Shown: positions 25,744 to 64,000 of the stretch, in pieces
Position numbering within the stretch: the stretch's first letter is position 1
How the letters are laid out: every line of letters begins with the position of its first letter
Assembly: GCA_963841735.1 (NCBI GenBank)
Contig: CAWJDT010000001.1
Span: 256,001-320,000 of the forward strand
DNA: 64,000 nucleotides
Reading direction: 5' to 3'
Origin: an uncultured Actinomycetes bacterium
Lineage (GTDB): Bacteria; Actinomycetota; Thermoleophilia; RBG-16-64-13
Made by a program: the position numbers and the translations under genes
The notes under the pieces: model-generated
What the model saw: the letters and a program-made list of their open reading frames with translations, nothing else
Database searches by the model: none
Told to the model about the DNA's origin: nothing

Positions 25744-25770
25744 AAACTCACCCGATCTCCGTCGTCGCCC

Positions 25771-27671: not shown

Positions 27672-27681
27672 CGCTGCCGAC

Positions 27682-28008: not shown

Positions 28009-28026
28009 CGCGGCTACACCTCCTCC

Positions 28027-29165: not shown

Positions 29166-29166
29166 G

Positions 29167-30194: not shown

Positions 30195-30357
30195 GGCAGC
30201 CTGCCGGGAAACCAAGCCCCGCACCCAGGGTGCGATGGGTATGCGCAAGAGAAGGACGCAGGGAGCGCGAATAGCAGGGCTATTTGCGCGACTGAGGACG
30301 CGCTATGGCGCCGCCCAGTGCAGCCTGAGGGCCGCGGCTTGATTTTCCGGCAGGCGC

Positions 30358-42834: not shown

Positions 42835-44100
42835 CTATTCCTCCGGTCTACAGGTGTCAACCGCTTCGGCATCCTCGAAGGCATCGGGGCCGGATTTCTC
42901 CGGCAGCCCGCTGCCAAAAACCAGAGTGTAGGTGTGCCGGGCGATCATCAGGTCTTCGTTAGTAGGCACCACCATCACCCGACACCGGCTCTCGTCGGAG
43001 CTGATGGTCAGGGTCTGATCTTTGTTGCGCGCCGGGTCGAGCTCGACGCCGAGATGTTCGAGTCCCCGGCATATGAGGGCGCGGACAAGCGGAGCGTTCT
43101 CGCCAATGCCGGCCGTGAAGACCAGCAGATCAAGACCTCCCAAGACCGCGGCAAGGGAGCCGACGGTCTTGCGCGCCTGATAGCAGTACATCTCCACAGC
43201 CTGGGCCGCCGCCTCGTTGCAGGTGGCCCGTAGCCCCAGCAGAGTCTCCATGTCGGCCGTCTCGCCGGACACTCCCTTCAAGCCGCTCTCCTTGTCCAGC
43301 AGACGCTCCAGGGTCTCAGAATCGTAGCCCCATTCGCGCTGCAGATAGAGCAGCACCCCGGGATCCAAATCACCGCTGCGGGTGCCCATCATGAATCCCC
43401 CCATGGGGGTCATGCCCATGGTAGTGTCCATCGGCCGCCCGTTCAGACAAGCGACCATGCTCGCCCCATTGCCCAAGTGGGCAATTATCGCGCGGCCCCC
43501 GGCTCGGTTGCCCAATACGCTAAGAACATACTCGTACGAGAGCCCATGGAACCCGTACTTGTGCACTCCCTGCTCGAAGAACTGTCGGGGCAAGGCCAAC
43601 CGGCTGGCGACCTCTGGCATGCGCGCGTGGAAGCCGGTGTCGAAGCAGGCCACCTGAGGCAACCCCGGGCGCTGAGCACACAGGGCGTCGATCACACGTA
43701 GGCTCGCCGGCATATGCAGAGGCGCCCATGCCGTGTGCTCGCGCAGGTCCTCCAGCACATCCGGGACAAGCATGCGCGGTGTGAGGTAGTGAGGTCCCCC
43801 GTGCACCACGCGGTGCCCGACGGCCTCGATCGAAGGGACGCTCCTACCAGAGAGCGCGGCCAGAACCTGCTCGATGGCATCCTCATATTCCACATCGGGC
43901 AGCAGGCGATCAAGGAACAGGCTGCCCTGTCCGTCCGCGAACCATATGCGGCCCTTGCCCTGCCCGATCCCCTCAACCGCTCCTCGGGCCAGGAGTTCCT
44001 GGTCCAAGCCTTGACGTTCGCTCAAGCCCACCTCGTATAGATGAAACTTCAGCGACGAAGACCCGCTGTTGATGCACAGGATCGTCTGCGACTCGATCAT
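42835..44100 (-). CDS. ackA: Acetate kinase
   Basis: INSGSSSLKF, GHRVVHGG, FDTGFH, YGFHGLSY, HLGNGAS, FTAGIGEN, PTNE. Confidence 0.96.
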   Translation of the reverse strand: MIESQTILCINSGSSSLKFHLYEVGLSERQGLDQELLARGAVEGIGQGKGRIWFADGQGSLFLDRLLPDVEYEDAIEQVLAALSGRSVPSIEAVGHRVVHGGPHYLTPRMLVPDVLEDLREHTAWAPLHMPASLRVIDALCAQRPGLPQVACFDTGFHARMPEVASRLALPRQFFEQGVHKYGFHGLSYEYVLSVLGNRAGGRAIIAHLGNGASMVACLNGRPMDTTMGMTPMGGFMMGTRSGDLDPGVLLYLQREWGYDSETLERLLDKESGLKGVSGETADMETLLGLRATCNEAAAQAVEMYCYQARKTVGSLAAVLGGLDLLVFTAGIGENAPLVRALICRGLEHLGVELDPARNKDQTLTISSDESRCRVMVVPTNEDLMIARHTYTLVFGSGLPEKSGPDAFEDAEAVDTCRPEE

Positions 44101-44708
44101 GAGGTCATCGCCTTTCGTCGCTCGCCCTGGGTGCTCGGACGCTTCAGTTCGCTCCAGCGGAAACAATCCACTGTGTGATCGTTTACCATGCCGGTTGCCT
44201 GCATATGCGCATACATGATAGTCGGTCCGACGAACCGGAACCCGCGCTTCTTTAGATCGACACTCAGGCGCTCAGCCGCTACCGTCTTGACCGGGATCTC
44301 CTCGATGCAACGCCAGTCGCCAGGCAGGGTCTCTCCGTCGACAAACTGCCAGACATATTCGTCGAAACTGCCGAACTCCCCTTGTATCTGCAAAAATGCC
44401 TGCGCGTTAACAATCGCCGCCTTGATCTTGAGCCGATTGCGCACGATCCCCGAGTCGCCCAGCAAACGCTCAACATCCGCCTCCCCAAAAGCAGCGACCT
44501 TCGACGGATCAAAGCCCGCGAATGCCCGCCGGTAGCCCTCCCGCTTCCGCAGGATCGTCAGCCAACTTAGACCGGCCTGCGCTCCCTCCAGAACCAGGAA
44601 CTCGAACAGAAGCCGGTCGTCGTGCACCGGCACTCCCCACTCCTCGTCGTGATAGGCGATGTAGAGGGGGTCCTCCCCGGCCCAGGCGCAGCGCGTCAGC
44701 GTACTCAT
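44097..44708 (-). CDS. tag: DNA-3-methyladenine glycosylase I
   Basis: RCAW, YHDEEWG, LEGAQAGLSW, IVRNRLKI, FVGPT, NDHTVDC. Confidence 0.96.
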   Translation of the reverse strand: MSTLTRCAWAGEDPLYIAYHDEEWGVPVHDDRLLFEFLVLEGAQAGLSWLTILRKREGYRRAFAGFDPSKVAAFGEADVERLLGDSGIVRNRLKIKAAIVNAQAFLQIQGEFGSFDEYVWQFVDGETLPGDWRCIEEIPVKTVAAERLSVDLKKRGFRFVGPTIMYAHMQATGMVNDHTVDCFRWSELKRPSTQGERRKAMTS

Positions 44709-47075: not shown

Positions 47076-48101
47076 TTAGGCGAAGCCCAGTTCCGCCGCG
47101 TTGTCGTGGTAGAGCAGCTGCTTCTCCGGTGAGGTCATGCCCCGGCTTTCCAAGAAGGCGATGCTCTCGGTCATCTCCTCGTAGGGGTAGTCGGTGCCCA
47201 GCAGGATCTTCTCCATGCCCAAGGCGTCACGGGTACAGTTGAACGCCCCCGCGAAGTAGTTGCCGCTGGTGGTCACCACCATATTGTCGCGCAGGTATTC
47301 GCTGGGCACTTTCTTCAGATCGGGCACCGCGTCGGGATCGGCCGCTTTGATGTGCGGGCGCACGAAGGGGTGGTCGATGCGCTGGTTGAGGAAGGGCAGA
47401 CCCTCGCCGTAGTGGCCCAGCATGATCTTCAGCCCGGGAAACGCGTCGAAGGCGCCGCTGAGTACCAGCCGCATCATGGCCGTCGCCGTCTCCAGGCCGA
47501 AACCGAAAGCCGCGCCGGCCAGTGCCAGACCGTAGGTGCGCAGCTCGCTGATCATGGGAGCGGTGGGATGCAGGTAGATGGGCACCTTCAGCTCTTCGCA
47601 CTTGGCCAGAATAGGCCAGTAGCGCTTGTCGTCTATGAAGGAGTCGGCGAAGTTGGAGTGCGTCTTCCAGCCTTTGAGGCCCAGTTCCTTGACCGCCCGT
47701 TCCAGCTCCTTGACCGCCGCCTCAGAGTCCTTGGGCGCCAGAGCGGCAAAACCGGCAAGACGGTCGGGATACTTCTGGATGGCTTCCGCCAGAGCGTCGT
47801 TGACCCGCATGGCCAAGCGGGTGCCGGCTGCCGGCGCGAGGTGGTCCACGCCGGGCGCGGTGAGCGACAGCACTGCCAAATCGATGCCTGCCGCGTCCAT
47901 CTCCTTGATGCGGCCCTCGCCCAGGTCGAGCAGCCGGTCGAGCAGCTTGTCGCCAAACGGCTCGAATGCTTCGGGCCAATACCAGAGCCGGCGCTTGCCG
48001 GTAACGGGGTCTTCGGTCAACCGAGGATAGACGTCTTCGCCGTACAGGGAGTCCACCCATTCCGGAGTAGCGAAGTGGGTCTCGAGATCGATGATCTTCA
48101 T
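47076..48101 (-). CDS. Amidohydrolase-2 family, hydroxybenzoate/resorcylate decarboxylase-like
   Basis: IDLETHF, MDAAGIDLAVLS, PIYLHP, GHYGEGLP, TTSG, GTDYPYE. Confidence 0.88.
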   Translation of the reverse strand: MKIIDLETHFATPEWVDSLYGEDVYPRLTEDPVTGKRRLWYWPEAFEPFGDKLLDRLLDLGEGRIKEMDAAGIDLAVLSLTAPGVDHLAPAAGTRLAMRVNDALAEAIQKYPDRLAGFAALAPKDSEAAVKELERAVKELGLKGWKTHSNFADSFIDDKRYWPILAKCEELKVPIYLHPTAPMISELRTYGLALAGAAFGFGLETATAMMRLVLSGAFDAFPGLKIMLGHYGEGLPFLNQRIDHPFVRPHIKAADPDAVPDLKKVPSEYLRDNMVVTTSGNYFAGAFNCTRDALGMEKILLGTDYPYEEMTESIAFLESRGMTSPEKQLLYHDNAAELGFA

Positions 48102-48156
48102 AGCCTGGCCTTTCGGGTAATGGCTGCGCGGCATGACGGCGCCTCTCTTGGCGCTC

Positions 48157-48447
48157 TCAGCCGCCAGCGATGGGTAGGAAGATGAGCACATCGTCACCTT
48201 TGACTAGGATGGTTTGCGGCGCCTGCTGCGCACTCAGATCGCGACCGTTGACCACAATACGGAGCGGAGCGTAAGGGCTGGTCGCCTGAGGATTACCCGC
48301 ATAGCGGGCGAAAGCCTCGCCCTTCTCCTCGGCGAGCATGTCGAGCAACCCGCCCACGGTGGTCCCGTCGGGCACCGACCTGGCCACCTCTGCCTGGCCC
48401 AGCAGTTGCCTGGTGAGGCCGACGCCCCTGACCTTGACTTCCACCAT
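48157..48447 (-). CDS. moaD: MoaD/ThiS ubiquitin-like sulfur carrier
   Basis: IVVNGR, C-terminal PIAGG. ATG overlaps the AOR stop. Confidence 0.88.
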   Translation of the reverse strand: MVEVKVRGVGLTRQLLGQAEVARSVPDGTTVGGLLDMLAEEKGEAFARYAGNPQATSPYAPLRIVVNGRDLSAQQAPQTILVKGDDVLIFLPIAGG

Positions 48448-50321
48448 TAGAGACCCAGCCGCTCGGCCACGTAGCCCAGCCGCAACTCTTCCAACTTGGC
48501 GCGCGTGGGCGCTCCCTCGTGCGTCCAGCCCCGAGCCTCGTAATACTCGTCGAGCATGGCATCCAGGTCGGCCTGAGAGATCATCTCGCCCTTGGAGGCC
48601 CCTTCCTTTATGGGCTCGGTCTTGAGGCGCTCGGGCAGGTCGTCGTCGGCCCTGGTGAAGCCGGCCAGGATATTGAAGGCCCTGGCCACATTGTTGATGC
48701 GCTCGCCCACCTGGTGCACCTCTTCGGGTGTGAACTCGAGGCCTGTGAGCCCCCTCATGATGTCGGCGGTGTTCTCGAACATGAAGTCGGCCACAGCCAT
48801 GTCCATGAGAAACACACACATGGTCGACGAGTCGGCGATGGCCGTGCGGGCGTCTTGGTTCCACTTGGTGAGCTTGCCCTTGCCCTCGATCGCCAGCCGG
48901 TCTACCGCGTAGGGGATGGGGATGCCGAAGATCTCCTGGAAGGCATATCCCTTGTTGTGATCAGCTCCGGTGAACGCCGTGGCCAGGCTGAGGCCGTGAG
49001 CTTTGGCTCCCCGCACGTCATAGCCGGGTAGTTCCAGGCCCTTGATGTGCATGGCGTACTTCTCGCTGCCTTTGCCGATCTTGGCCGCGGCCGCCTTGGT
49101 GCCGTCGGCAAGGAGGTCGCCCAGCCCAGGCTGCCTCTCACCCATCATGTGCAGCAGCTTGACCATCGACTGGTCGTTGCCGAAATGGAGGTCCATGCCC
49201 CCGGTGTCTCCCAGCGTGAGGATGCCCTTCTCGAACAACTCCATGGCAAAGGCGATGGTCACCCCGGCCGAGATGGTGTCGATGCCCAGTTCGTCGGAGA
49301 GGCGGTCGGCGGCGATGATGGCGTCGGGATTGTCGACCCCGGTCACCCCGCCAAAAGAGTATAGAGTCTCGTACTCCGGCCCTTCGGCGAGGATGCCCGT
49401 GTAGGGCGGCTCTTTGGCCAAGCGCATCTGGCTGCAGGCCACCGGACATCCGGCGCAGGCGGTCTTGCCCGCACTCAGGGCCTCTATCGCGAAGCCACCG
49501 ATCTTGTCGGCGGGAGTGAAGACGCCTGTACCCGACCAGTTGACCGCCGGGTAGATGCCCAGCGCCTGGGTGAGGTCCAAGGTGGTGGAAGTGCCGTAGC
49601 GCGAGAACTCGGGATAGAGGATAGGGCTCTTCTTCATGCCCTCGCGCATGCGCTTGCGCGCGGCGTCGTACTTCTCTTTGTCGGCGATCTGCACCTGCTG
49701 GTCGCCCCGCAGGGCGATGGCTTTGAGATTCTTGGAGCCCATGACCGCGCCCAGGCCCTTGCGACCGGCCACCCGACGCTCGTTGACGATAGCGGCCATC
49801 TTGGACAGCTTCTCACCCGCCGGCCCGATGCAGCTCACCCGCACGTTCTGGTCGTGAAGCTCGTCCTTGATAGCCTGCTGGGTGTCGCTGCTCCACATGC
49901 CCCATATCTTGGCGGCCGAACGGAACTTGACCTCGCCTTTCTTGATGTATAGGTAGGTGGGCTCCGCCGCCTTGCCCTCGATGATGATCGCGTCATAACC
50001 GGCGCGCTTCATCTCCACGGGAAAATGCCCGCCGGTGGTGGCCACACCCATGGCTCCCGTCGCCGGCGACTTGGCGTTGATGGCCATCCGGCTGGCGCAG
50101 GGGATGGTGCTGCCGGTGAGGGGCCCCGGAGCGTAGACCAGCTTGTTCTCCGGGCCCAGCGGGTCGCAGTCGGGCGGCACCTCATCGAAGACGTACTTGA
50201 CGGTAAGGCCCGACCCGCCTATGAAATCCTGAGCCACTTCCACGGGCAGTGGCTCTTCTTTGAAGGTCTTGCTGGTGAGATCTACCCTCAGGACCTTGCC
50301 GGTGTAGCCGCCGCGATACAT
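48447..50321 (-). CDS. aor: Tungsten aldehyde:ferredoxin oxidoreductase family
   Basis: LRVDL, KSPATG, CIGPAGE, GLGAVMGSKNLKAI, CAGCPVAC, GPEYET, YYEARGW. Confidence 0.95.
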   Translation of the reverse strand: MYRGGYTGKVLRVDLTSKTFKEEPLPVEVAQDFIGGSGLTVKYVFDEVPPDCDPLGPENKLVYAPGPLTGSTIPCASRMAINAKSPATGAMGVATTGGHFPVEMKRAGYDAIIIEGKAAEPTYLYIKKGEVKFRSAAKIWGMWSSDTQQAIKDELHDQNVRVSCIGPAGEKLSKMAAIVNERRVAGRKGLGAVMGSKNLKAIALRGDQQVQIADKEKYDAARKRMREGMKKSPILYPEFSRYGTSTTLDLTQALGIYPAVNWSGTGVFTPADKIGGFAIEALSAGKTACAGCPVACSQMRLAKEPPYTGILAEGPEYETLYSFGGVTGVDNPDAIIAADRLSDELGIDTISAGVTIAFAMELFEKGILTLGDTGGMDLHFGNDQSMVKLLHMMGERQPGLGDLLADGTKAAAAKIGKGSEKYAMHIKGLELPGYDVRGAKAHGLSLATAFTGADHNKGYAFQEIFGIPIPYAVDRLAIEGKGKLTKWNQDARTAIADSSTMCVFLMDMAVADFMFENTADIMRGLTGLEFTPEEVHQVGERINNVARAFNILAGFTRADDDLPERLKTEPIKEGASKGEMISQADLDAMLDEYYEARGWTHEGAPTRAKLEELRLGYVAERLGL

Positions 50322-50367
50322 GTCACACCTTTCCTAGTGAGGCGAAACCAGCGGGCTTCGTCTCCGC

Positions 50368-51519
50368 TTAGAAGTTCCGAGGCTCCGGCGCCAAGCCCGG
50401 CCGCCCCGGATACTTGGCAGCCACCTCTATCACCTTCGGATCGTCCAGCGCGGTGAGATGCCCCTTGTCGTGCACTAGTGTGTCCCCGACCCGGAAGGTC
50501 GGATTGCGAATGTCTCCCGTGATGTGCATCCAGTAAGGGTAGTCGACGGTGGCGGGTGGCGCACCGATGTGCACGTGGACGTTGCAGGTGTGGGAGTGTT
50601 CTATCAACCGGCGATGCAGCACGTTGGGGCACTGGTGCGGAGCGATCACTGCCTGCGGGTGGACACCGAAGTGCAGGGTGTTGAGAGAGTAGACCCCCTC
50701 GCCCAGGCGCCCGCGCATCATATCGAGGAACCTCTTGAGCGCTTCCGCCTCGCTACCCCCGACGATCTTAGTGATCTTGCCATCTTGCACAGTCAGGCTG
50801 ATAGGGCTTTCGAAGTAAGGCGAGATGCCTATGTAGCGAGACCACCAGCTGTGCATGCAGTCAAACACAAAGGTCCCGCTCAAGTTGCCCATGCTGACAG
50901 GAATACTCACCCACTCCGGCCAGGGCCGGTAGACACCGAACTCCTCCCTTCGCACCCAGTAGGTGGGGAAGGAGGGGTTGGTGGAGGGCAGTATCACGCC
51001 CTCCAGATGCGTCCCGTTGGGGTCGGACAACTCCCACGAAAGACCGGGCTGCATGCCCAGTGAAGCGCGATAGCGTATCTCGCTCACCAACTCGTTGGGC
51101 GTCTGCGCCCACGCGGAACAGAGAAGAGGCGCCGTTGTGGCGAAGTTGCGCACCATCGGCTTCTTGTTCTCGGTGCTCCACTTCCTGAACTCGGAGAGCT
51201 CTTCTCGGACGACGTTGAAGGAGTGATTGATCAGAACGTCGCAGCCGGCCATCGCGGCCTTCGCGATGGGCGGCAGCCGCCATTCGTGCGCCCGGGCAGG
51301 TTCGTCGATCCACAGCACCGACGCATTCGCGCCCCGAAACTTGATGCCCGACTCGATCCAGGAGATTGCCTCCCGGTCGACCATGTTGTCTCCCCCGTGG
51401 AGGCCATCGGTGTGAGCAAGAATCAGGACTTCCTGCCCAGGCTGGATCCTGGCACAGTTGTCCAGCAGGTCGCCGACGGCTATCGCCGCCTCCTTGGGAA
51501 TGCCACCCTGGTCACTCAT
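50368..51519 (-). CDS. Divergent peptidase-M29/NicX-like metalloprotein
   Basis: I.PGQEVLIL, NGTHL, GTFVFD, SPISLTVQDGKITKIVGG.EA, LHFGVHP, VHVHIG, MHITG, G.LVHDKGHL. Confidence 0.7.
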   Translation of the reverse strand: MSDQGGIPKEAAIAVGDLLDNCARIQPGQEVLILAHTDGLHGGDNMVDREAISWIESGIKFRGANASVLWIDEPARAHEWRLPPIAKAAMAGCDVLINHSFNVVREELSEFRKWSTENKKPMVRNFATTAPLLCSAWAQTPNELVSEIRYRASLGMQPGLSWELSDPNGTHLEGVILPSTNPSFPTYWVRREEFGVYRPWPEWVSIPVSMGNLSGTFVFDCMHSWWSRYIGISPYFESPISLTVQDGKITKIVGGSEAEALKRFLDMMRGRLGEGVYSLNTLHFGVHPQAVIAPHQCPNVLHRRLIEHSHTCNVHVHIGAPPATVDYPYWMHITGDIRNPTFRVGDTLVHDKGHLTALDDPKVIEVAAKYPGRPGLAPEPRNF

Positions 51520-51692
51520 GATGTCCCACTCCTACGCGGTCCGCTTACAGTCGCACCATCACGGTCTGCACTCTACAGGAGATACCACGCCGGGACGACG
51601 GTCATCAAGACACGCTCGTACAAAGGCTCGGGCAGCAACCGACCGGGGCTGTCCTGTGGAACACATCCCCAGCGCCCGAGCCCAATCGCGAC

Positions 51693-51720
51693 AAAGAAAA
51701 GGGGCGCCTTTCGGCGCCCC
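51693..51720 (-). terminator. Rho-independent terminator
   Basis: GGGGCGCC-GAAA-GGCGCCCC-TTTTCTTT on the minus strand. Confidence 0.88.
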
Positions 51721-51765
51721 CCAGAGGAGGGAGACATGGCAAGAACGGCCCCTCGAAGGGGCCGG

Positions 51766-52755
51766 CTACTTCAGATACCGATCGACGAACGCAAAGACTC
51801 GGCTCAGGTTCTCCGGGGTTGCGAAGGCCGGATCAGCATGCCCCGCGCCCTGTAGGAGATCCAACTCGTACCGATGGCCGCCCACTCGCTCTTCAATGGC
51901 CCGGGCGAACTCCACCGACTGCTGGTACGGCACAGTGGAATCCAACGTCCCGTGCTGGATCAAGATGGGAGCCATGCCCTCATGGACGTAGGTCATCGGG
52001 TTGGCAGCCCGGACCTTATCCGGTACCTCGCGGATGATCCGGCCCAAGTACCTCGACTCGGGCGAGTCGGCCTCACTGTGGTCACAAGGCCCCAGACCAC
52101 TTGCGGCAAGCTGCTCATCCATCTTCAAGAAGTCGGTGGGCCCGAACCAATCGACTCCTACCGCCACTTCGGACGAGTACTCCGCGTTGCCCAGTGCCGG
52201 GTCATCGAACAGAGCGACGTGGGACGAGACGCAGATCATCGCGGCATAATTGGCGCCGGACGACCCACCGCACGCGCATATCCGGCTGGGGTCCAGCCCG
52301 TACTCTGTCCCATGAGCCCGCACCCAGCGGATGGCCGCCTTGGCATCCTGCAGACCCGCCGGAAAGATGGCTTCGCCGCTCAGACGGTAGTTCACGCTCA
52401 CAACAGCGTAGCCGCGCACCAGTCCTACCAGATGAGGGTAGAGATTGTCGTCGCGTTTGTCGCCGATCTCGAACGCGCCGCCGTGAGTGTAGAACAGCAC
52501 CGGGAACGGCCCGCCACCCTCTTCGGGCAGGTAGATATCAAGCTGCTGGACGGCGGAGGTGGGAGCGTAGGTGACGTCCAGCCACTTCCGACGGATGTGC
52601 GAGACATCAGCCGTCGGGATCTGGAATTCTTCACCCGGATGCTCCAGCATCCACAGCTCCCTCGGCGAGCCCGACTTCGCCGGGACGCCCGGCATCCCAG
52701 GAGCCCAGGTCGCTCCGGGCGTTCCACTATTGTGAGGTCCATTAGGAGTTTTCAT
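51766..52755 (-). CDS. Alpha/beta hydrolase (HSL/BD-FAE-like esterase)
   Basis: LDIYLP, HGGAF, VNYRL, GGSSG nucleophile motif, HGTLD..VP, GAGH. Confidence 0.9.
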   Translation of the reverse strand: MKTPNGPHNSGTPGATWAPGMPGVPAKSGSPRELWMLEHPGEEFQIPTADVSHIRRKWLDVTYAPTSAVQQLDIYLPEEGGGPFPVLFYTHGGAFEIGDKRDDNLYPHLVGLVRGYAVVSVNYRLSGEAIFPAGLQDAKAAIRWVRAHGTEYGLDPSRICACGGSSGANYAAMICVSSHVALFDDPALGNAEYSSEVAVGVDWFGPTDFLKMDEQLAASGLGPCDHSEADSPESRYLGRIIREVPDKVRAANPMTYVHEGMAPILIQHGTLDSTVPYQQSVEFARAIEERVGGHRYELDLLQGAGHADPAFATPENLSRVFAFVDRYLK

Positions 52756-55986: not shown

Positions 55987-56074
55987 CCCTGCCCTCCTTT
56001 TGGAACTCAATGCGTCAGCACCCCATTCGCTTGGTTGCCGGCTCAAGACGGGCGTCCGTCCCAACCGCGTTGTA

Positions 56075-56123
56075 AGAATATCGATTCTGTTATGAAAGCG
56101 CAAGCTATAAGAATCACGATTCT
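56075..56123. promoter_or_regulatory. Two palindromic operators AGAAT-N4-ATTCT in the divergent promoter region
   Basis: AGAATatcgATTCT (56075-56088) and AGAATcacgATTCT (56110-56123), 35 bp apart. Confidence 0.75.
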
Positions 56124-56156
56124 TTTATGGGCCATTCAATCGTCTATAATCATCGT

Positions 56157-56807
56157 ATGGAGCTAGAGCAAGCCACATTCCGACCCCCCCGCCGCAAACC
56201 TGGACACGCGTCTCTTGAGAAGATCTTGGCTGCGGCCGAGGACCAGCTTCGAGAGGAAGAGCTGGACTTCTTTACCATCCAAAGTGTGCTCGAGCGCACC
56301 GGACTGTCCGTCGGGGCCTTCTACGCCCGCTTCCCCGGCAAGGCCGCGCTACTACAGACGGTGCAGGACCGCCTGCATTCCCGCATGCAACCGGTCATTC
56401 TTGCCGCCTTGGAGGCTCAGGCACAAGTTGAAGAGTCGCTTGAGGAGGCGGTCGACCACGGCTTCGGCATCCTCGTCGAGCACATCCTCGCCGAACGCCA
56501 GCTGTCGCGGGCTTTCATGATGCTATCGGCCTTCGATCCCGTGATGCGCCAGAAAGGTGAGCAGGTCAACCTGGAGCGGAGGAGTGCCCTCGCCACGGTT
56601 CTAGCCGCCCATCGGGACGAGATCGGTCAGCCGGCTCCGGACGCGGCCATCGAGATGGCATACGTCACATACATATCGGTGATGCATGGCCGGCTGGTGT
56701 TCTTCAGCCCATCGAGCGTGCTGCGCTTCGGCGTGACCGACGAGCAGGTGTTCGGTCAACTCAAGGCGTCTTTGGCTGCCTTCCTGCGAGGCAGCGCCAC
56801 TCTCTAG
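56157..56807 (+). CDS. TetR-family regulator (probably leaderless)
   Basis: ILAAA...FTIQSV...[24 protein letters not shown] at 56145-56150, 6 nt before the ATG. Confidence 0.92.
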
Positions 56808-57745
56808 CGCTCGCCCGGAGTCTCTCGGCGCTTGGGCGACTTGGCCAACAGCTGCTCCACCAGGCCGTCTATCGCCTGCCAATCCTTTGTCAGATCGACC
56901 CGGCCGTCGTAGGCGGCGCGCACGGCCAAGAACATGGCAAGCAGGTTGCGCATGATATCGGCTCTCGTGTACTTGTTGTCCCAGGAGGCCCGCATCTCCA
57001 TGCTTTCGAGCACCCCGATGAACCCAAACGCCACCAACTCGTCGTCGAAGAGCCCGACATTCGCGCCGGGCTTCCGGTCCGCGGCCAGTTCGTCCGCCGC
57101 GCCCCGCAGCATCCTTTCGTAGACTCCCCGCACCAAAGGACGGAGCGCGCTCTCCGGGTGGAACGCCTCTACCCGAGCCATGGCCTGCAGATCGGGGCTG
57201 AAGGCCTGGATGCCGTTTCCCCCGTAGAGCCGCCAAGCCATGCGAGCGGCGGAATCACGCGTATGTTGGACGGCCTCCCAGACTTCGGCGCTCATGTACT
57301 CGTAGTAGACCTCCCAGCAGGCGATGAACAGATGCCTCTTGCTGGGGAAATGGGCGTAGAGCAACTGGGCGGTAATGCCTACATCCTTGCAGATGTCACC
57401 CACGCGGGTCTTCTCATATCCGTGTTCAGCGAAACGGGCGGCCGCCGCGTGCAGGATGGCGCTGCGCATGGCCTCGCTCTGCCTAGCCACGAGATCCACG
57501 TCGTTCTCAGACGCTTTCTCGATACGCGTCGCGAGTTGCGAACGGATCTCCTTCAGGCTCAGTCCTTGAGCTTTGAGGTTGGTGATAGCGAGCAACAGAT
57601 CGATGTGAGACTGGTCGTAGACCGCGCGGGTGGCGCTGGCCTTCTGCGCAGACGGCAGCAAGCCATCGCTGATGTAGTAGTAGATAGTGCTACGACCTAC
57701 TCCGGTCTCCTGCTCCAATTCCGATATGCTGAGCGCCCTCATCAT
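56804..57745 (-). CDS. MerR-HTH/TetR fusion regulator
   Basis: [26 protein letters not shown] (MerR HTH), then [17 protein letters not shown]...LLYAHFPSK (TetR HTH). Confidence 0.9.
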
Positions 57746-57766
57746 CAGTAGGTCACATCGTCCTGC

Positions 57767-58600
57767 TCATCGCGTCGTGATGTAGCCCCGCCATTGCTGC
57801 AGGTGATCGGACTCGGGCCGGTCGAGGATAAAGACCCCCACAAAGTCCTTGAAGGGCTCGAAGAAGGGGAGCTTGTCCCACTTGGCCCAAGCCGGTTTGC
57901 TGTACTGTCCGGCCTTCTCGACGAAGGCCTTGCGCCAACCTTCGGAGTCGTCGAACCAGATCTCCACTATGCGCTGAAAAGGGTTGATGCGCGGATCGTC
58001 CAACTGGCGGCTGGAGATAAATCGGTTTACCTCGGGCTGAGCCGCCACCTCCGGCGCGAACACCTCCTTGAACCAGGTGTCACCCTCGTCGACGGAGATC
58101 TCGTCCGGGTACTTCAGCAAGAAGAGCCAGCGGAAGTTGGCACCCGCGTCGGTGAGTCGCCCTTCTCCCTTGAAATCGTCTTCCCAGAACACCGGCGCGA
58201 AGGAAAACACGACGGGACGATAGCCGTCCCGGCTCCCCTGCCAACCGGACTGTCGCAACACCTTGCTGGGCGGCTGGCAGGTCATCTCCATGAAATCGTC
58301 GGGATACTCCTCGCCAAAGGCGAGGCCGGCGGGCATGCCGGTCCCCTTGCTCTGAAAGATGTTGAAGAGCCAGTAATGCTCGGTCATCATGCCGTTGTAA
58401 GTGCCGAAATCGAGCGCGCCTTCAGGCAGGGGCAGCGCATGGTAGGTGCAGTACTTGGTGCAGTAAGGCATGAACTGCGAGATGCTCTCGGGCACGTGTT
58501 GCTTGTACAGCCAGCGCCAGATCTTGGGCCGGTCGTTGTCGGAGCGGAAGTTCTGAAGGATGAAGCTCCGCATAGGCTTGAATTCAGGAAAATAAGCCAT
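57767..58600 (-). CDS. chi: Bacterial chalcone/taxifolin isomerase homolog (two ferredoxin-like domains)
   Basis: Matches recalled Eubacterium ramulus CHI motifs: PMRS, RW.YK.H.P.SISQF.PY.TKY, TEH.W, WE.D.KG.GR....GAN.R, EIWF, KP.WA, RGYIT.R. Confidence 0.85.
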   Translation of the reverse strand: MAYFPEFKPMRSFILQNFRSDNDRPKIWRWLYKQHVPESISQFMPYCTKYCTYHALPLPEGALDFGTYNGMMTEHYWLFNIFQSKGTGMPAGLAFGEEYPDDFMEMTCQPPSKVLRQSGWQGSRDGYRPVVFSFAPVFWEDDFKGEGRLTDAGANFRWLFLLKYPDEISVDEGDTWFKEVFAPEVAAQPEVNRFISSRQLDDPRINPFQRIVEIWFDDSEGWRKAFVEKAGQYSKPAWAKWDKLPFFEPFKDFVGVFILDRPESDHLQQWRGYITTR

Positions 58601-58610
58601 GACGCCTCTC

Positions 58611-59600
58611 CTATTCGTCTCCCTCGACCGCGACCTGCGCACGCGGCGGCTTGGTGGCCTTCAGGTACTCCTTGTACTTTGCCGTCTTCGCAGGAAGGTC
58701 GCCCATGTTGGCCGGCGGCTTGAGCGAGACGTTGGCCAGCTCCTCCAAGTGCATGAACTTGCCCGAGAGGAGCACGTGCGAGTGCGGCCGCTCCTCGTCG
58801 GTGACCGTGAATGTCACCTGGCCGCCGTCGGTGCTGAGCGTGCCCCGCACGCCACAGATGCCGCAGACTGTGGGGTACGGCTCAGCGGCGTTCCGAATCT
58901 CGAACAGCTTTGAATGACACATGGGGCACAGGCCGGGGTCGCCGATGTACTCGGCCTGGTCGAGGGGTTTCATGAGACTCTCGGCCACATGGCGGCCCGA
59001 CTTGCGGGCCCGCTCCAGCAGGTCGTCACGCAGGGCGACGACCTTGGGCAGCGCCACCCAGTTGACCAGGTATTTGTCGACCACCTCGAATTGCATGGAG
59101 AGGGTGAAAAGGTGCATCAACGGCAGAGCGAGGGTGTCCCACTCGCTGCCACCCACGGCGATCAGCGAAGCAGCCCTAGGCTTGAAGGCCCGCTGGTCGG
59201 GTCCCTCACCGGTGGTGATGCCACGCTCGGCCCGCATCTTGGTGGCCGCCATACGGAAGGCCTGGTCGTGCGACGGGCCCATGCGGTCGTTAAGAGTCTT
59301 GAGAAGCCCGGGCGGGGACTTCTCGTAGATGGGCGCGCCCAGAATGAGGCCGTCACAGTCCATGATCTTGTCGTCGATGAAGGGGAAGTCATCGTTCTTG
59401 AGAATGCACCGCCCCGGGCCGCACCGCTCAAAGAGGTCTTCCACGCACGAATTGCACCCGGTGCAGGGCTTGATATGGAGGTCCTGGAGCCGGATCAACT
59501 CGACCTCAGCGCCGGCCTCCTCGGCCCCCATGAGGGCTTCTTTGACCATGATCTCGGTGTTGCTTGCGCGCCTTCCGCAGGATAGGCCGAGGACTTTCAT
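58611..59600 (-). CDS. flr: Flavodoxin-like FMN ene-reductase, flavone/flavonol reductase homolog
   Basis: Matches recalled Flavonifractor plautii FLR motifs: EALMGA.E.GAEVE, CTGC..CV, PI(Y/F)EK, DR.GP, VGGS.W, Y.GD.G.CP.CHS, C..CG, H..LSGKF.H. Confidence 0.82.
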   Translation of the reverse strand: MKVLGLSCGRRASNTEIMVKEALMGAEEAGAEVELIRLQDLHIKPCTGCNSCVEDLFERCGPGRCILKNDDFPFIDDKIMDCDGLILGAPIYEKSPPGLLKTLNDRMGPSHDQAFRMAATKMRAERGITTGEGPDQRAFKPRAASLIAVGGSEWDTLALPLMHLFTLSMQFEVVDKYLVNWVALPKVVALRDDLLERARKSGRHVAESLMKPLDQAEYIGDPGLCPMCHSKLFEIRNAAEPYPTVCGICGVRGTLSTDGGQVTFTVTDEERPHSHVLLSGKFMHLEELANVSLKPPANMGDLPAKTAKYKEYLKATKPPRAQVAVEGDE

Positions 59601-59685
59601 TCTTCTGCTCCCTTGCTGTGCTTTGCTGCGCCGGTGGGCCGTTCGCCGGCATTCAGCCCGGCGAACGACCCCCAAGCTGACTTCT

Positions 59686-60912
59686 CTAGTTAAGCGTCCG
59701 CACGAACTCGAACGCGCCGGCTTTGATCTGGTACTCGACCAAGAATCCCTTTACGCCTTCGGTGGTGTCCTCGGGCATGTAGTTCTGCAGACCCTCGAGG
59801 GTCTGGACATCCCTCAGATTGACCAGTGCCTCACGCACCGCTTCCTTGTCATCCGCACCACCGGCCTGCTTCATGGCCGCCTCCAGAACGATGAAGTAGT
59901 CGGCACCCATGGCCGCGAAGAAGTCCGGCGCAAAGCCGTAGTTCGCAACGTAGCGGTCATAGAAGTCCACCTGGAAAGCTTTGGTCGGCCAAGTGTCGGG
60001 CAGGGCCTGCGGATTCACCATGCCGCCGGAATCCAGAACATAGAGACCCTCCACCGCTTCCGCACCCCTAGACATGACCGCCGGGTGAGCCGCGGCCGGC
60101 GAGCCATGTACGGGCACCGTCACTCCCAGAGTCCGCAGACCTTGGTATAGCGCCGGCTGCGCCAAGGGGTTGGACAGCGTGAAGATGGCGTCCGGCTTGA
60201 CCGAGTTGTACGCCTCCATGATCTTGTTCAAGATCGCCTGGGGATCGGGTAGGCTGAGACCGAAGGTGTCCGGCAGAACCGTGAGGGTGAACCCCTCGGT
60301 CGCCGCCAGCTCAACCAGCTTGGTTAGGGTCTCTTGGTGGATCGACAGGGTGTCGGCGATGGCCACTATGTTCTTGTACCCATGGGCCTTGATCAGCTTG
60401 GCGAAGGCATCCGCCTGAGTCACGGGGCCCGCGCCCATCATAACGCTCCACTTGTACGGAGTCGCCGCCTCAATCTGCTCGAGACTCGGGGGTCCCGCTC
60501 CTATCATGGGCATCTCGGCATCTTCGCAGATAGCCCGAGCCGCTTCCTGGCCAAACCCGATGAACGGGCCCACGAAATACTCGATGCCATCCTGCTCAAT
60601 CAGCTTGTTCATGGCCGCGGTCATCGAGGTCACCTCAGACTTGTCGTCTTCGATGAGGAGTTCGATCAGCCGGCCGTTGATCCCGCCGTTTTCATTGATC
60701 CATTTCACCTGATACTCGGCGCCATTCTTGATAGAGACGCCAGGAGCCGCGCTGGCTCCGGTGAGGCTGGTGACCATGCCGATCTTGATCGGCTCGTTGG
60801 AAGCAGCCCCGGTGTCACTCGTGGTGACTTCACCGCCGCCGCAGGCCATCGCCATCAAGGTGACCACCAACAACACTGCCAAGAGACCTGCAAGCATGAA
60901 CCGCTTTCTCAT
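59686..60912 (-). CDS. livK: HAAT (LivK-type) ABC binding lipoprotein
   Basis: Lipobox AMAC, PIKIG...SLTG, INENGGINGR.IEL..EDD. Real ligand is possibly aromatic. Confidence 0.88.
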   Translation of the reverse strand: MRKRFMLAGLLAVLLVVTLMAMACGGGEVTTSDTGAASNEPIKIGMVTSLTGASAAPGVSIKNGAEYQVKWINENGGINGRLIELLIEDDKSEVTSMTAAMNKLIEQDGIEYFVGPFIGFGQEAARAICEDAEMPMIGAGPPSLEQIEAATPYKWSVMMGAGPVTQADAFAKLIKAHGYKNIVAIADTLSIHQETLTKLVELAATEGFTLTVLPDTFGLSLPDPQAILNKIMEAYNSVKPDAIFTLSNPLAQPALYQGLRTLGVTVPVHGSPAAAHPAVMSRGAEAVEGLYVLDSGGMVNPQALPDTWPTKAFQVDFYDRYVANYGFAPDFFAAMGADYFIVLEAAMKQAGGADDKEAVREALVNLRDVQTLEGLQNYMPEDTTEGVKGFLVEYQIKAGAFEFVRTLN

Positions 60913-60987
60913 CGTTCCTCCTCTTCTTCCCCTGGTGTGAGACGCTTCCATTTTGCCCTATCCGTGCCTGATGCCTGAGAGCGTGCG

Positions 60988-63747
60988 CTAGCCCCGGCTG
61001 GAACCGAGGTAGCCTGCGCGCACGCGATCATCCGTCTTCAGGTCCCGCGACAACCCGGCAACGACCACGCTGCCGGTCTGCAGAACAACCCCACGGTGAG
61101 CCAGCGAGAGCGCCATCTCCGCGCCCTGCTCCACCATCAACATGGTCAAACCCTGTTTGTTCAGCTCAGCCAGCGCCTCAAAAATGCGCTCTACCACCAG
61201 GGGAGCGAGGCCCATCGAGGGCTCGTCCAACACCAGCAAATCGGGCTTGCCCACCAGCGCCCGGCCGATGGCCAGCATCTGCCGCTCGCCTCCCGAGAGG
61301 GTACCCGCCGCCTGCCTACGCCGTTCTCCCAGCACCGGGAAGAGCTCGTAGACGTAGGCGATGTCGTCGGCCAGCGTGTCCCGCCAATCGCGTCGCCCGG
61401 AACTACCCACCACCAGGTTGTCCTCCACCGAAAGGTCGCGGAACAAGCGGCGCCCCTCAGGTACCTGGCGAAGCCCACGAGCCGCGATCTTCTCCGGAGC
61501 CAGCCGGGTGATGTCGGAATCCTTGTAGGTAACCAAGCCCCGGTTTGGCTTCAGCAATCCCGAAACCGTGTGAAGCAGCGTGGTCTTGCCCGCCCCATTC
61601 GCCCCCAGTATGGCCACTACCTCGCCCTTGGGCACCACGAAGGACACCCCATGCAATGCCTCTATCGAGCCGTAGGAGGTAGCGAGGTCCTCGATCACCA
61701 GAAGGTTCTCGGGCTCGGCACAGGTTCCGGCGGCAAGATCCCGGGTCTGGCAGAGATCCTGGCCCTGGTCGAGTTTCACTCCCAAGTAGGCCTCGATGAC
61801 CGCGGGATCCTTCTGCACGGACTCGGGCCTCCCCTCACAGATGAGGCGGCCGTAGTCGAGCACGAACACATAGTCCGAAATATCCATGACCAACTCGATG
61901 TCGTGTTCCACCAAGAGCACCGTGATCCCCGACTCCCGGATGCGGCCTATCTGCTCGACCAAATGCGCGCGCTCCGAAGCGTTCATGCCGGCCGCGGGCT
62001 CATCCAGCAACAGCAGGCGCGGTTCAGAGGCCAGCGCCCGAGCGATCTCCACCAAGCGCTGCGAGCCGTAGGGAAGGCCGGCGGCAGGAGCAGATGCCGT
62101 TGCCTCCAGCCCCACCATGGCCAAGGCCTGCATGGCTCGCTCGCGGGACGCCCGTTCCTCTCTTCTCTGATGTGGAAGGCCCAGACCTCCAGCCCAAAGT
62201 CCCGTCTTTTCGTGGCGATGACAACCCACGAGGACGTTCTCGAGAACGCTCATGTTGGGATATATGCGAAGGTTCTGGAAGGTGCGGGCCATGCCCAAGC
62301 GCGCCGTGTTGGCAGTGGACATTTTGGTCACGTCCTTGCCGGCGAACCGAATGGTGCCCGCGGACATCTTCTGCAACCGGCTGATTGCGTTGAAGAACGT
62401 AGTCTTGCCCGCGCCGTTAGGGCCTATCAGCGCCACGATCTGCCCCTCCGTCACCTGCAGTGAGACCTGATCCACCGCCTTCAAGCCACCGAAGTGCACC
62501 GAGACCCCCTCGACCTCCAGAAGCGAACCGACCGCGGCCCCCTCTGAGGCCGCCCGGTCGCCCACAGCCCGAGCGAGCGACGAAACGAGGACTTCTGCCT
62601 CAGCGACCGTCAAGGCGGCCGTGCCCGCGGCGGCGCCAACCACCTGCGGAAGTCCTACTGATGTTTCGCACTGCCCGAGCGGCTGGTCCTCCTCGGCCGC
62701 CGCCGAGCACTGCAACGACTCGCGCAGCTTCTCTTTCCGGAAGAGCGCCTTGAGACACGCCCGCTGGTCGGGTCGCAACAGCAGACCGGCGGGCAAGAAC
62801 ATGAGCAGCAACACCATGATGACTGAGTACAACACTCCGCTGTACTGCCCGATGCCTGGGACCTTGGTCGGTAGCCAGTCTTTGATATAGATCATGATGA
62901 CGGCCCCGATGACGGCGCCCCAAACCGACCCAGCCCCACCTATGAGCATCATGACGATGGGGAGAATGGCCAATGAGAAAGTGAAGTCCAAGGGACTGAA
63001 GGCTCCGTTCACAAAAGCAAACAGACCGCCGGCCATCCCGCAGATCACGGCGCTGGTCACAAAGCCGAGGAGCTTCCAGTTGGCCGTGCGCATCCCCAGC
63101 GACGACGAGGCGATCTCGCTGGTGGCAATGGCCCGGAAAGCCCGGCCCATACGGTACTTGAGCGCACGGGAGACAAAGATGAGCACGATGATCACGATGA
63201 CCCAGACCAAGTAGTACTTGCTCATGGCGCCCGCGAACTCAAACCCGAAGAGGCTGAGCTTGGGCACCGGCGCGACTCCCTTTTCGCCGCCGGTGATCGA
63301 GCGCATGGTGACGTTCACAAGGGTCAGAAATATCTGACCGAGTCCAATCGTGGCCAAGGCCAAGTAAAAGTAGCGCAGCTTGAGCACCGGCCGGCCGACG
63401 ATGAGAGCGACAATTCCGGCGGCCAACGCCCCGAGGATGAGACAGGCTATGGTCGGCATGTGGAGTTTCATCGCCATGAGCCCGGTCATATAGGCGCCTA
63501 TGCCGTAGAAGGCGGAGTGGCCGAAGGAGAGCTGCCCCGCTTGGCCCAGCACTATGACCACCCCGATGGTAAGAAGCGCGTACAGGCCGGCCGTCCTCAT
63601 GTACCCCATGTGGACCTTGTTGCCAAACACAAGTGGCCAGACCAACAAGGCGACTACCATGAGCACCTTGAGGATGGTGCCCCCGTGCCTGCTCCAGTAC
63701 GTTCTGAAGGCCGGGGCGCCATTCTTTAGCAGCCTGCCGGCCATCAT
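60988..63747 (-). CDS. Fused HAAT permease and two ATPases (LivM-LivG-LivF)
   Basis: GQLSFGH, YLALAT permease motifs; GPNGAGKT/LPYG/DEPAAG; GANGAGKT/LSGGE/DEPSMG in one 919-aa ORF. Confidence 0.92.
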   Translation of the reverse strand: MMAGRLLKNGAPAFRTYWSRHGGTILKVLMVVALLVWPLVFGNKVHMGYMRTAGLYALLTIGVVIVLGQAGQLSFGHSAFYGIGAYMTGLMAMKLHMPTIACLILGALAAGIVALIVGRPVLKLRYFYLALATIGLGQIFLTLVNVTMRSITGGEKGVAPVPKLSLFGFEFAGAMSKYYLVWVIVIIVLIFVSRALKYRMGRAFRAIATSEIASSSLGMRTANWKLLGFVTSAVICGMAGGLFAFVNGAFSPLDFTFSLAILPIVMMLIGGAGSVWGAVIGAVIMIYIKDWLPTKVPGIGQYSGVLYSVIMVLLLMFLPAGLLLRPDQRACLKALFRKEKLRESLQCSAAAEEDQPLGQCETSVGLPQVVGAAAGTAALTVAEAEVLVSSLARAVGDRAASEGAAVGSLLEVEGVSVHFGGLKAVDQVSLQVTEGQIVALIGPNGAGKTTFFNAISRLQKMSAGTIRFAGKDVTKMSTANTARLGMARTFQNLRIYPNMSVLENVLVGCHRHEKTGLWAGGLGLPHQRREERASRERAMQALAMVGLEATASAPAAGLPYGSQRLVEIARALASEPRLLLLDEPAAGMNASERAHLVEQIGRIRESGITVLLVEHDIELVMDISDYVFVLDYGRLICEGRPESVQKDPAVIEAYLGVKLDQGQDLCQTRDLAAGTCAEPENLLVIEDLATSYGSIEALHGVSFVVPKGEVVAILGANGAGKTTLLHTVSGLLKPNRGLVTYKDSDITRLAPEKIAARGLRQVPEGRRLFRDLSVEDNLVVGSSGRRDWRDTLADDIAYVYELFPVLGERRRQAAGTLSGGERQMLAIGRALVGKPDLLVLDEPSMGLAPLVVERIFEALAELNKQGLTMLMVEQGAEMALSLAHRGVVLQTGSVVVAGLSRDLKTDDRVRAGYLGSSRG

Positions 63748-64000
63748 TCCTCGCCCTCGTTGGAGGGGATCCCGAGCAGCCCAGTGGGCCGGAAGTACAA
63801 GAACAGAATGAGAATGGCGTAGGCGATAGCGTCCTCGTTACCCGCGGGCACGAAACCCAGCGACAGGTTCTGGATGATGCCCAACGCGAGACCGCCAACC
63901 ACCGCACCGCTGCTGGAGCCCCAGCCACCCAGAATGGCAGCCACAAAACCGCTCAAGGCAAACATGCCACCCGACATGTACGTGGTCTGGCTGATGGGGT
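63744..64000 (-). CDS. livH: HAAT permease LivH (3' part, 5' end off the window)
   Basis: FVAAILGGWG...GAVVGGL, LYFRPTGLLG. Stop overlaps the next ATG. Confidence 0.85.
   Translation of the reverse strand, partial: PISQTTYMSGGMFALSGFVAAILGGWGSSSGAVVGGLALGIIQNLSLGFVPAGNEDAIAYAILILFLYFRPTGLLGIPSNEGEE

Follow-up and report, generated by a model that had tools for sequence, protein, structure and literature searches.

Our picture of anaerobic flavonoid breakdown comes almost entirely from gut Bacillota, and the locus described here raises the question of whether an uncultured actinobacterium carries the genes to begin it as well. The locus lies on contig CAWJDT010000001.1 (assembly GCA_963841735.1), in a stretch of 64,000 nucleotides (positions 256,001 to 320,000; hereafter the window, to whose full length all coordinates without a contig or locus label refer), and comprises two neighbouring genes, one for a protein similar to flavone reductase (FLR; here P0001) and one for a protein similar to bacterial chalcone isomerase (CHI; here P0002). 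Judging from sequence comparisons, we consider it quite likely that they form an flr-chi entry module for anaerobic flavone and flavonol catabolism. An earlier note on this DNA had proposed an entry module for anaerobic flavonoid breakdown, and homology, fold, gene pairing and pathway genes now support that proposal, in which the activities are predicted ones. Comparisons draw on a scan of GTDB species genomes (286 relatives), from which 79 loci were kept and which, with the window, make 80 loci. The pair is laid out as follows.

57767..58600, minus strand: CHI-like gene encoding P0002 (277 aa), bacterial chalcone-isomerase-like, of the short-lid form called "type II" below
58601..58610, minus strand: intergenic gap of 10 nt, as read from the sequence, with the Shine-Dalgarno-like AGGAGAGG over the flr stop codon
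58611..59600, minus strand: flr-like gene encoding P0001 (329 aa), with an FMN_red N-terminal domain and a Cys-rich C-terminal extension and tail, of FLR clade B

The two predicted enzymes

A PDB search with P0001 returned FLR as its sole strong match (7D38 chain A and sister entries, E 5.5e-68), with residues 1-320 of 329 aligned to 1-309 of 310, and the next best entry came at E 0.0049. The entries 7D38, 7D39, 7D3A and 7D3B are structures of the Flavonifractor plautii FLR (Yang et al. 2021, PMC7862272, drawn on here and below for part of its text). Identity to that enzyme is ~39% (hand count of the PDB alignment), and residues 1-151 of P0001 form a flavodoxin-like, flavin mononucleotide (FMN)-binding N-terminal domain (Pfam FMN_red, 6.9e-18). 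Yang et al. regard as putative FLRs those proteins with at least 30% identity, at least 80% coverage and E <=1e-10, limits within which P0001 falls on all three counts. The C-terminal extended domain and tail of FLR are lacking in WrbA, and deletion of the last 11 residues kills activity (PMC7862272). P0001 has both the extension and the tail: the alignment reaches position 309 of the 310 in the solved structure, with T316 and P318 standing at Thr305 and Pro307.

The FLR tree divides into two main clades, A and B. P0001 falls in clade B alongside 15 actinobacterial rows, the Fusibacter group and Clostridium nigeriense/caldaquaticum; the protein encoded beside CHI in Flavonifractor matches 7D38 at E 2.9e-123, and therefore the characterised FLR belongs to clade A. 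Mutations at G106, W149, H271 and I275 of the F. plautii enzyme strongly cut or abolished activity (PMC7862272). P0001 is identical to it at G106, S147, W149, H271, D103, I89, E91, K92, E34, T305 and P307 (in its own numbering and the same order, G108, S152, W154, H284, D105, I91, E93, K94, E34, T316 and P318), and departs from it at I275 (L288), W72 (F74), T279 (S292) and K282 (P295). When 55 FLR-family proteins taken from the loci, of both clades, are aligned, three of these departures prove to be properties of the clade to which P0001 belongs: L288 and S292 stand in 21 of the 23 clade-B rows (the other two have gaps) and F74 likewise in 21 (the other two have Val), with P318 kept in 22 of 23. 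The change from I275 to Leu is conservative, and T279 and K282 vary even within the F. plautii clade.

Eight cysteines (C46, C49, C52, C65, C225, C228, C246 and C249) are invariant across the 55 rows, save for a single Ser at C246. They are arranged as CxxCxxC...C in the N-terminal domain and CxxC...CxxC in the C-terminal one, an observation of this analysis and not a published criterion; the words "Cys", "iron" and "zinc" were not found in the part of the main text of Yang et al. (PMC7862272) on which we draw. The same source states that NAD(P)H is no direct electron donor of FLR and that the chain delivering its electrons has still to be identified. A metal or iron-sulfur site at the conserved cysteine clusters may be a testable lead toward the electron donor.

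For P0002, a PDB search returned entries of the Eubacterium ramulus CHI (CHIera) and nothing else (4D06/3ZPH, also 4D4F and 8B7U; E 6.5e-51, residues 6-277 against 5-283), and Pfam assigned it to Chalcone_N (PF18232, 1.2e-25). An AlphaFold2 model built from a 20-sequence alignment (mean predicted local distance difference test, pLDDT, 85.3; predicted template modelling score 0.85) has two ferredoxin-like domains, and the first ten Foldseek ranks were all CHIera chains (template modelling score, TM, 0.81-0.88; E ~3e-27 to 1e-26), other folds such as ferredoxin-like dimeric barrels reaching TM 0.51 or lower. Identity in the structural alignment is 33-34%. The model is least certain in the lid region, with pLDDT 54-65 at residues 81-100 and 111-120.

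The pocket residues listed by Meinert et al. (2021, PMC8361940) were mapped onto P0002 through its alignment with CHIera. The catalytic His33 corresponds to His35, invariant in 81 of 81 CHI rows and part of the motif K33-Q34-H35; Tyr48, Thr71, His73, Trp75 and Glu91 correspond to Y50, T73, H75, W77 and E97, invariant in the 76 rows of types I and II (see below) and including the motif T73-E74-H75; and Ser37, Gln40, Phe41 and Ile12 are kept as S39, Q42, F43 and I14. Val14 is replaced by Gln16. The mobile lid of CHIera (~residues 108-130) bears Asn122 and Arg125 (PMC8361940); one alignment pairs Arg125 with R116 of P0002, which every type II row keeps, in a region that aligns unstably. The end-to-end homology of both proteins that the earlier note had claimed is confirmed (the FLR match is full-length, and the CHI match extends to the modelled fold), as are the KQH motif with His35, the TEH motif and a differing lid, which is 11 residues shorter than that of CHIera. 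The similarities are neither weak nor partial, and the best matches of P0001 are not iron-sulfur flavoproteins without the C-terminal Cys domain. The note was also correct that PYHN of E. ramulus is replaced by PFKD ("KPYHN" of CHIera aligns with "EPFKD" of P0002), but the weight it gave to the lost His did not stand, since that His is variable even among the aligned CHIera-type sequences.

The 81 CHI rows fall into three types.

Type I: 34 rows, 37-42% identity to P0002; CHIera-like, with a long lid
Type II: 42 rows, 49-95% identity to P0002; P0002-like, with a short lid and altered A-ring contacts
Type III: 5 rows, 26-29% identity to P0002; 252-262 aa, in every case a second copy next to a type II gene

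All 42 type II rows have T50, M/I69, T101 and L87 (CHIera numbering), so that both Gln69 and Gln101 are absent from every one of them, and all 34 type I rows have F50, Q69 and Q101. Ile79 is confined to the actinobacterial and Fusibacter group, where it is found in 29 of 29 rows. In the CHI tree P0002 sits in the basal type II group, outside the CHIera clade, and the longest internal branch splits type III from types I and II. In type III the lid is deleted, an insert of 15-20 residues stands in the solvent-exposed domain, and His73 and Glu91 are lost. These types can be set against the branches of Meinert et al. (PMC8361940), whose branch B proteins, inactive on chalcones (data not shown in that paper), have extra residues at alpha6-beta6 of the solvent-exposed domain and helices alpha3-alpha5 remade as loops, and whose branch A proteins all have His33, with Gln69, Thr71 and Gln101 conserved "except in branches 1 and 2"; all 13 branch A representatives tested were active, each on several chalcones. 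We infer that type III may be branch B and that type II may comprise sub-branches 1-2 of branch A, which would consist of types I and II because the longest internal branch separates type III. Membership of P0002 in branch B was rejected as the principal interpretation given its lack of the solvent-domain insert, its retained His73 and Glu91 and the split in the tree, and is kept as a rival below.

The five type III paralogs (L038 7094-7861, L045 2340-3098, L047 7188-7976, L053 6773-7534 and L054 5415-6173) usually neighbour a glyoxalase-family gene, a short DAPG-hydrolase-like gene or both. Type II CHIs with N-terminal extensions of 30-45 residues, signal-peptide-like, occur in Halotalea, Vibrio salinus, Orbaceae and Rhizobiales (L040, L042, L044 and L048), and a LysR gene often lies upstream of CHI in the type II loci outside the actinobacterial and Fusibacter groups. 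In 10 of the 13 loci of this last kind, FLR is missing within 8 kb. Owing to these extensions and this absence, the sequences suggest a periplasmic, FLR-independent role for the type II CHI of Pseudomonadota. The CHI family as a whole is small, with 202 cluster representatives at E <=1e-3 among 1.84 billion.

Pairing and pathway genes across genomes

Open reading frames (ORFs) of the 80 loci were clustered into families and an FLR was scored wherever it lay within 8 kb of CHI. Such a gene was present in 51 of the 80 loci, across phyla, distributed as follows.

Actinobacterial type II clade: FLR in 25 of 29 loci, directly adjacent in 21
Fusibacter/Acidaminobacter group: FLR in 4 of 4 loci
Other type II loci, mostly Pseudomonadota: FLR in 2 of 13
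Type I (CHIera-type) loci: FLR in 20 of 34

Among the four actinobacterial loci that lack it, one (L033) has none despite full flanks and three have flanks too short to judge, two of these carrying FLR fragments at the contig edge. The adjacency of FLR and CHI genes is far beyond chance. It is also a known arrangement, as the characterised flr of F. plautii (A4U99_05915) adjoins chi (A4U99_05920) and was found through that neighbourhood (PMC7862272).

Nine sister actinobacterial loci (L014-L018, L020, L022, L023 and L051) have an FLR of clade A in the place that P0001 takes ahead of CHI; there the CHI is 88-91% identical to P0002 and the FLR 36-38% identical to P0001. From these sequence relationships one FLR seems to have replaced another in situ, as a functional equivalent, and the shared position before a near-identical CHI speaks for functional equivalence of the two FLR clades.

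Two of these relatives, L017 and L051, place further candidate steps around the pair in a single block: a transporter, a B12-binding protein, a URO-D-like methyltransferase, FLR, CHI, an FAD flavoprotein, a DAPG/phloretin hydrolase (1.2e-66) and a regulator, continued in L017 by a short-chain dehydrogenase/reductase (SDR) and a 3-hydroxyacyl-CoA dehydrogenase and in L051 by an OYE-type enoate reductase. The flavonoid pathway reading is supported by such clusters, as far as gene content can indicate function. The host genome has its own members of these families, namely three tandem DAPG_hydrolase (phloretin-hydrolase-like) genes, ~30% identical to the L017 copy, and two OYE + Pyr_redox_2 (enoate) reductases, 35% identical to the L051 copy. 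It also has, unlinked to the window, a cyclase-3HCDH-SDR-SDR-cupin-BKACE cluster (G000:C5 ~129000-134000; L091 2965-7945). Its families (SDR, "cyclase", 3-hydroxyacyl-CoA-dehydrogenase-like and BKACE) match PGR, DPGC, TfD and TAL, by which Clostridium scatologenes degrades phloroglucinol anaerobically (PMC10470551, cited for part of its text); four families are alike, the host cluster is unlinked, and the assignment is one of family level. NCBIfam gave no equivalog-level match for the cluster and placed no pathway candidate above its cut-off.

Genes for URO-D-like methyltransferases (19 of the 29 actinobacterial loci) and for B12-binding proteins (8 of 29) are found no farther than 8 kb from CHI, often directly beside FLR-CHI (L012-L051, e.g., L017 5017-6985) and in no other group. 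Because these genes stand beside FLR-CHI, they suggest O-demethylation of methoxylated flavonoids in the actinobacterial relatives, a function proposed from gene neighbourhood. The cluster in the window is without a methyltransferase, and the B12/URO-D pair of the host lies elsewhere (G000:C1:1429702-1431655).

The third commonest neighbour of CHI is an LVIVD-repeat protein of ~450 aa, found in 28 of 80 loci (14 type I, 11 actinobacterial and 3 other; e.g., L084 10442-11884 and L016 5577-6923). The host copy, outside the window (G000:C1:160357-161667; L092 5355-6710), is 75% identical to the one beside CHI in L016. PDB and NCBIfam searches gave no informative match for this family (the one hit was haloalkylphosphorus hydrolase, E 1.8e-4), and the literature search found no paper tying LVIVD proteins to flavonoids. 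It may be an unrecognised pathway step.

The proposed route and its rivals

Based on homology, fold, conserved residues and conserved pairing, from which every catalytic and transport step is deduced, the following route can be proposed. A flavonoid aglycone would be imported by the HAAT-type ATP-binding cassette (ABC) transporter encoded next to the pair. FLR, as an FMN enzyme and homodimer, would reduce the C2=C3 bond of a flavone or flavonol to give the flavanone or flavanonol, with a reductant other than NAD(P)H itself, possibly a low-potential carrier feeding the conserved cysteine clusters. CHI, with His35 as general base, would then open the heterocyclic C ring to a chalcone or contract a flavanonol to an auronol. 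The unlinked enoate reductase, the DAPG/phloretin-hydrolase-like proteins and the PGR-DPGC-TfD-TAL-like cluster could complete the degradation to phloroglucinol, phenylpropionate and acetyl units, and the adjoining MerR-TetR fusion probably controls the operon. FLR activity has been reported at identities to the F. plautii enzyme as low as ~28%, for the Clostridium ljungdahlii FLR (PMC11868195, PMC8398226, each cited for part of its text).

Several points weigh against this route. The candidate downstream genes are unlinked to the pair in the host and are only 30-35% identical to the copies clustered in its relatives. The A-ring contacts of CHIera are gone from P0002 (Gln69 is Met71 and Gln101 is Thr107), which also departs at Phe50 (Thr52), Asp79 (Ile81) and Lys87 (Leu93), and its lid segment is 11 residues shorter. 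A lid-less CHI-like branch is reported inactive on chalcones, although we have argued above that this would be type III. Apigenin is reportedly not turned over by one FLR paralog of F. plautii, and flavanones can be cleaved by Fcr without CHI, so that the pathway role of CHI is debated. No assay of a clade-B FLR or a type II CHI came up in our literature search (the supplementary lists of tested proteins in Yang et al. and Meinert et al. were outside its coverage). Finally, one COX1-family gene is present in the host genome.

The altered pocket lends itself to a reading in which the families are the same and the chemistry differs: an environmental variant for methoxylated or 5-/7-deoxy flavones, or a CHI acting mainly as a ring-contracting isomerase from flavanonol to auronol. 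The A-ring contact changes run through all of type II (T50, M/I69, T101 and L87 in 42 of 42), Ile79 is restricted to the actinobacterial and Fusibacter group and Pro or Ile at this position raised CHIera activity on 4'-methoxy hesperetin chalcone (PMC8361940); to these may be added the methyltransferase and B12-binding genes of the relatives (19 and 8 of 29 loci), the known conversion of flavanonols to auronols by CHIs and the independence of Fcr from CHI. However, the window itself encodes no methyltransferase, FLR holds mainly the A and C rings and leaves the B ring outside the pocket, which makes it promiscuous (PMC7862272), all 13 tested branch A CHIs took several chalcones (PMC8361940), and what sets both clades apart consists of sequence differences; we consider this reading unlikely.

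It is more improbable still that P0002 is catalytically silent or re-purposed, like branch B of Meinert et al., and that the pair does not serve flavonoid ring opening. The shortened, low-confidence lid and alpha3-alpha5 region (pLDDT 54-65) recalls the helices that branch B has remade as loops (PMC8361940), but the extra solvent-domain residues of branch B are absent from P0002 and present in type III, which has also lost the whole lid, His73 and Glu91 and is set apart from types I and II by the longest branch of the tree. P0002 itself keeps His33, Tyr48, Thr71, His73, Glu91 and an Arg aligned with Arg125, and the linkage of CHI to FLRs of two clades is tight. As for the chance neighbourhood of an ordinary quinone reductase of the WrbA/flavodoxin kind and an EthD-like protein without relation to it, the names of public homologs (mostly "flavodoxin family protein", "multimeric flavodoxin WrbA" and "hypothetical protein") and the lack of a specific NCBIfam model (P0001 matches weakly, below cut-off, and P0002 matches no family) would be in keeping with it, but it is barely credible and is already contradicted by the PDB matches, by Foldseek and by the pairing counts: the next PDB match of P0001 after FLR is at E 0.0049, the extension and tail absent from WrbA are aligned to the end, P0002 matches bacterial CHI alone in both sequence and fold, and 51 of the 80 loci, from different phyla, show the pairing.

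An flr-chi entry module remains the reading we prefer, and it may best be described as a known module in a new host lineage, with both enzymes from clades that may be uncharacterised. It resembles that of F. plautii (PMC7862272) in its adjacent genes, its two-domain FLR with a C-terminal tail, its conserved residues and its eight cysteines, and differs in the clade of its FLR, with clade-wide replacement of W72 by F, I275 by L and T279 by S, in gene order (flr then chi here, chi then flr in Flavonifractor loci), in its host, known from a metagenome-assembled genome (MAG) of an actinobacterium, and in its link to an ABC importer of the HAAT family and to a MerR-TetR regulator. P0002 shares with CHIera (PDB 3ZPH, 4C9S, 4D06, 8B7U; PMC8361940) the double ferredoxin-like fold and the pocket residues listed as kept above, and differs from it in the lid and the five replaced positions; with branch B it has in common the altered alpha3-alpha5 and lid region and not the extra solvent-domain loop. 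The C. ljungdahlii FLR (ADK16070), the second one characterised, is active on flavones and flavonols.

FLRs have already been noted in "a few Actinobacteria" (PMC7862272) and reported in Olsenella, and the CAMPER paper, in the part cited here, treats an "anoxic flavonoid pathway" and Actinobacteriota in general terms only. Our literature search turned up no account of CHI or FLR from this actinobacterial lineage. The earlier note, which knew of no description in such a lineage, is to be corrected as regards the phylum. Of the automated names that it forecast, "flavodoxin" and "hypothetical protein" predominate, but some pipelines already say "flavone/flavonol reductase" for close homologs, as JGI does for some at 67-70%.

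If the module works as proposed, an uncultured actinobacterial family would start flavone and flavonol degradation without oxygen, which would bear on the fate of polyphenols in anoxic soils and on the "enzyme latch" debate. A short-lid CHI with an altered A-ring pocket and a clade-B FLR could be of use in biocatalysis and in metagenome annotation, and the conserved cysteine clusters may help to locate the missing electron donor of FLR. A more ambitious picture, which we offer tentatively and with more doubt than belief, would be that of a Wood-Ljungdahl actinobacterial family whose environmental module (clade-B FLR, short-lid type II CHI, Ile79, no Gln69 or Gln101) is in most members coupled to corrinoid O-demethylases as well as to a HAAT importer and MerR-TetR regulator, and which demethylates and fully ferments methoxylated flavonoids in anoxic soils and digesters, its FLR being a metal or iron-sulfur flavoprotein fed by ferredoxin through the eight cysteines.

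Surroundings of the pair and its host

The neighbours of the pair in the window are listed here.

56127..56807, plus strand: convergent TetR-family regulator, 226 aa (Pfam TetR_N, 1.6e-07)
56804..57745, minus strand: MerR-TetR fusion regulator, 313 aa (Pfam MerR_1, residues 6-69, and TetR_N, residues 97-143)
59601..59685, minus strand: spacer of 85 nt between the binding-protein gene and flr, with a strong stem-loop (core arms ~59641-59666)
59686..60951, minus strand: HAAT-family ABC substrate-binding lipoprotein, 421 aa (Pfam Peripla_BP_6, 8.1e-44)
60988..63747, minus strand: fused ABC permease and two ATPase domains, 919 aa (Pfam BPD_transp_2, two ABC_tran and BCA_ABC_TP_C)
63744..64000, minus strand: 3' end of a further transporter-operon ORF that runs off the window (ORF list), probably the second permease judging from its position

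As the earlier note had it, the two genes lie 10 nt apart on the minus strand, with a HAAT importer before them and a MerR-TetR regulator after them, an arrangement that the Pfam domains bear out. Co-transcription and translational coupling of flr and CHI are likely given the 10-nt gap with AGGAGAGG over the flr stop codon and ahead of the CHI gene. GGGAG stands 7 nt upstream of the flr ATG; for both genes longer ORFs begin further upstream, and the first Met of the shorter forms is the start seen in homologs. The spacer before flr folds as RNA at -39.3 kcal/mol (z -3.33), a value equalled by 1 of 200 shuffles, and no T-run was found after the stem-loop at 59641-59666. Scans of 56000-64000 for promoters and terminators did not rise above chance, with 2 hits where 1.6 were expected and 7 where 5.4 were. 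The closest solved structures of the binding protein are generic HAAT binding proteins (E 2e-15), matches too general to point to a ligand. The regulator gene begins 21 nt past the CHI stop codon, and its product is 63% identical to the L017 copy. Within the 29 actinobacterial loci the binding protein accompanies FLR-CHI in 13, the permease-ATPase in 15 and the MerR-TetR regulator in 12, and among the 80 loci the binding-protein and MerR-TetR families occur near CHI in the actinobacterial group only. No public sequencing run carrying both genes was found.

Just downstream of the regulators (47079-52755, minus strand) are genes for an Amidohydro_2 protein, a tungsten-type aldehyde:ferredoxin oxidoreductase (AOR), an unassigned 383-aa ORF and a BD-FAE (feruloyl/acetyl esterase-like) hydrolase, a gene set that is a plant-phenolics/aromatics setting.

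The 28 closest loci all come from MAGs, with a CHI identity of 76-95% (tblastn); their labels are Actinomycetota, Actinomycetes, actinobacterium, Thermoleophilia or Gaiellales in 25 cases and "bacterium", Gammaproteobacteria and Thermodesulfovibrionales in one case each. The closest related locus shares gene order with the window at 86-87% nucleotide identity. A CHI match at E <=1e-20 was found in 23 of 36 genomes of the host's family, among which three of the host's genus (G009, G010 and G014) gave weak partial, paralog-like matches, and in 0 of 24 genomes from seven other families of its class. In the CHI tree the actinobacterial rows group together as a single clade (support 93), with the Fusibacter/Acidaminobacter group (99*) as their sister. 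Recent horizontal arrival of the pair was considered and rejected, given this single clade and the ordinary GC content of the flr-CHI part (0.62) relative to the rest of the window. A single old transfer, in either direction, is possible.

The host genome (2.82 Mb, 89.7% complete) encodes the acetyl-CoA synthase CdhC, the window encodes the AOR, and cytochrome bd was not found in the genome at this completeness. From its gene content the host is likely an anaerobe. Of the "non-Clostridial anaerobe" of the earlier note, the first half is borne out by the overwhelmingly actinobacterial labels of the nearest loci, and the second is plausible through CdhC and AOR, with the COX1-family gene making strict anaerobiosis less certain. 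Elsewhere in the window (22691-31690 and 40477-44166) there are genes for Complex-I/Mrp-like membrane subunits and a 49-kDa subunit homolog, in a stretch of strong AT skew (0.16-0.25), and, further along, a phosphoketolase gene that adjoins one for acetate kinase. The isolate names of the closest relatives suggest digester and soil metagenomes.

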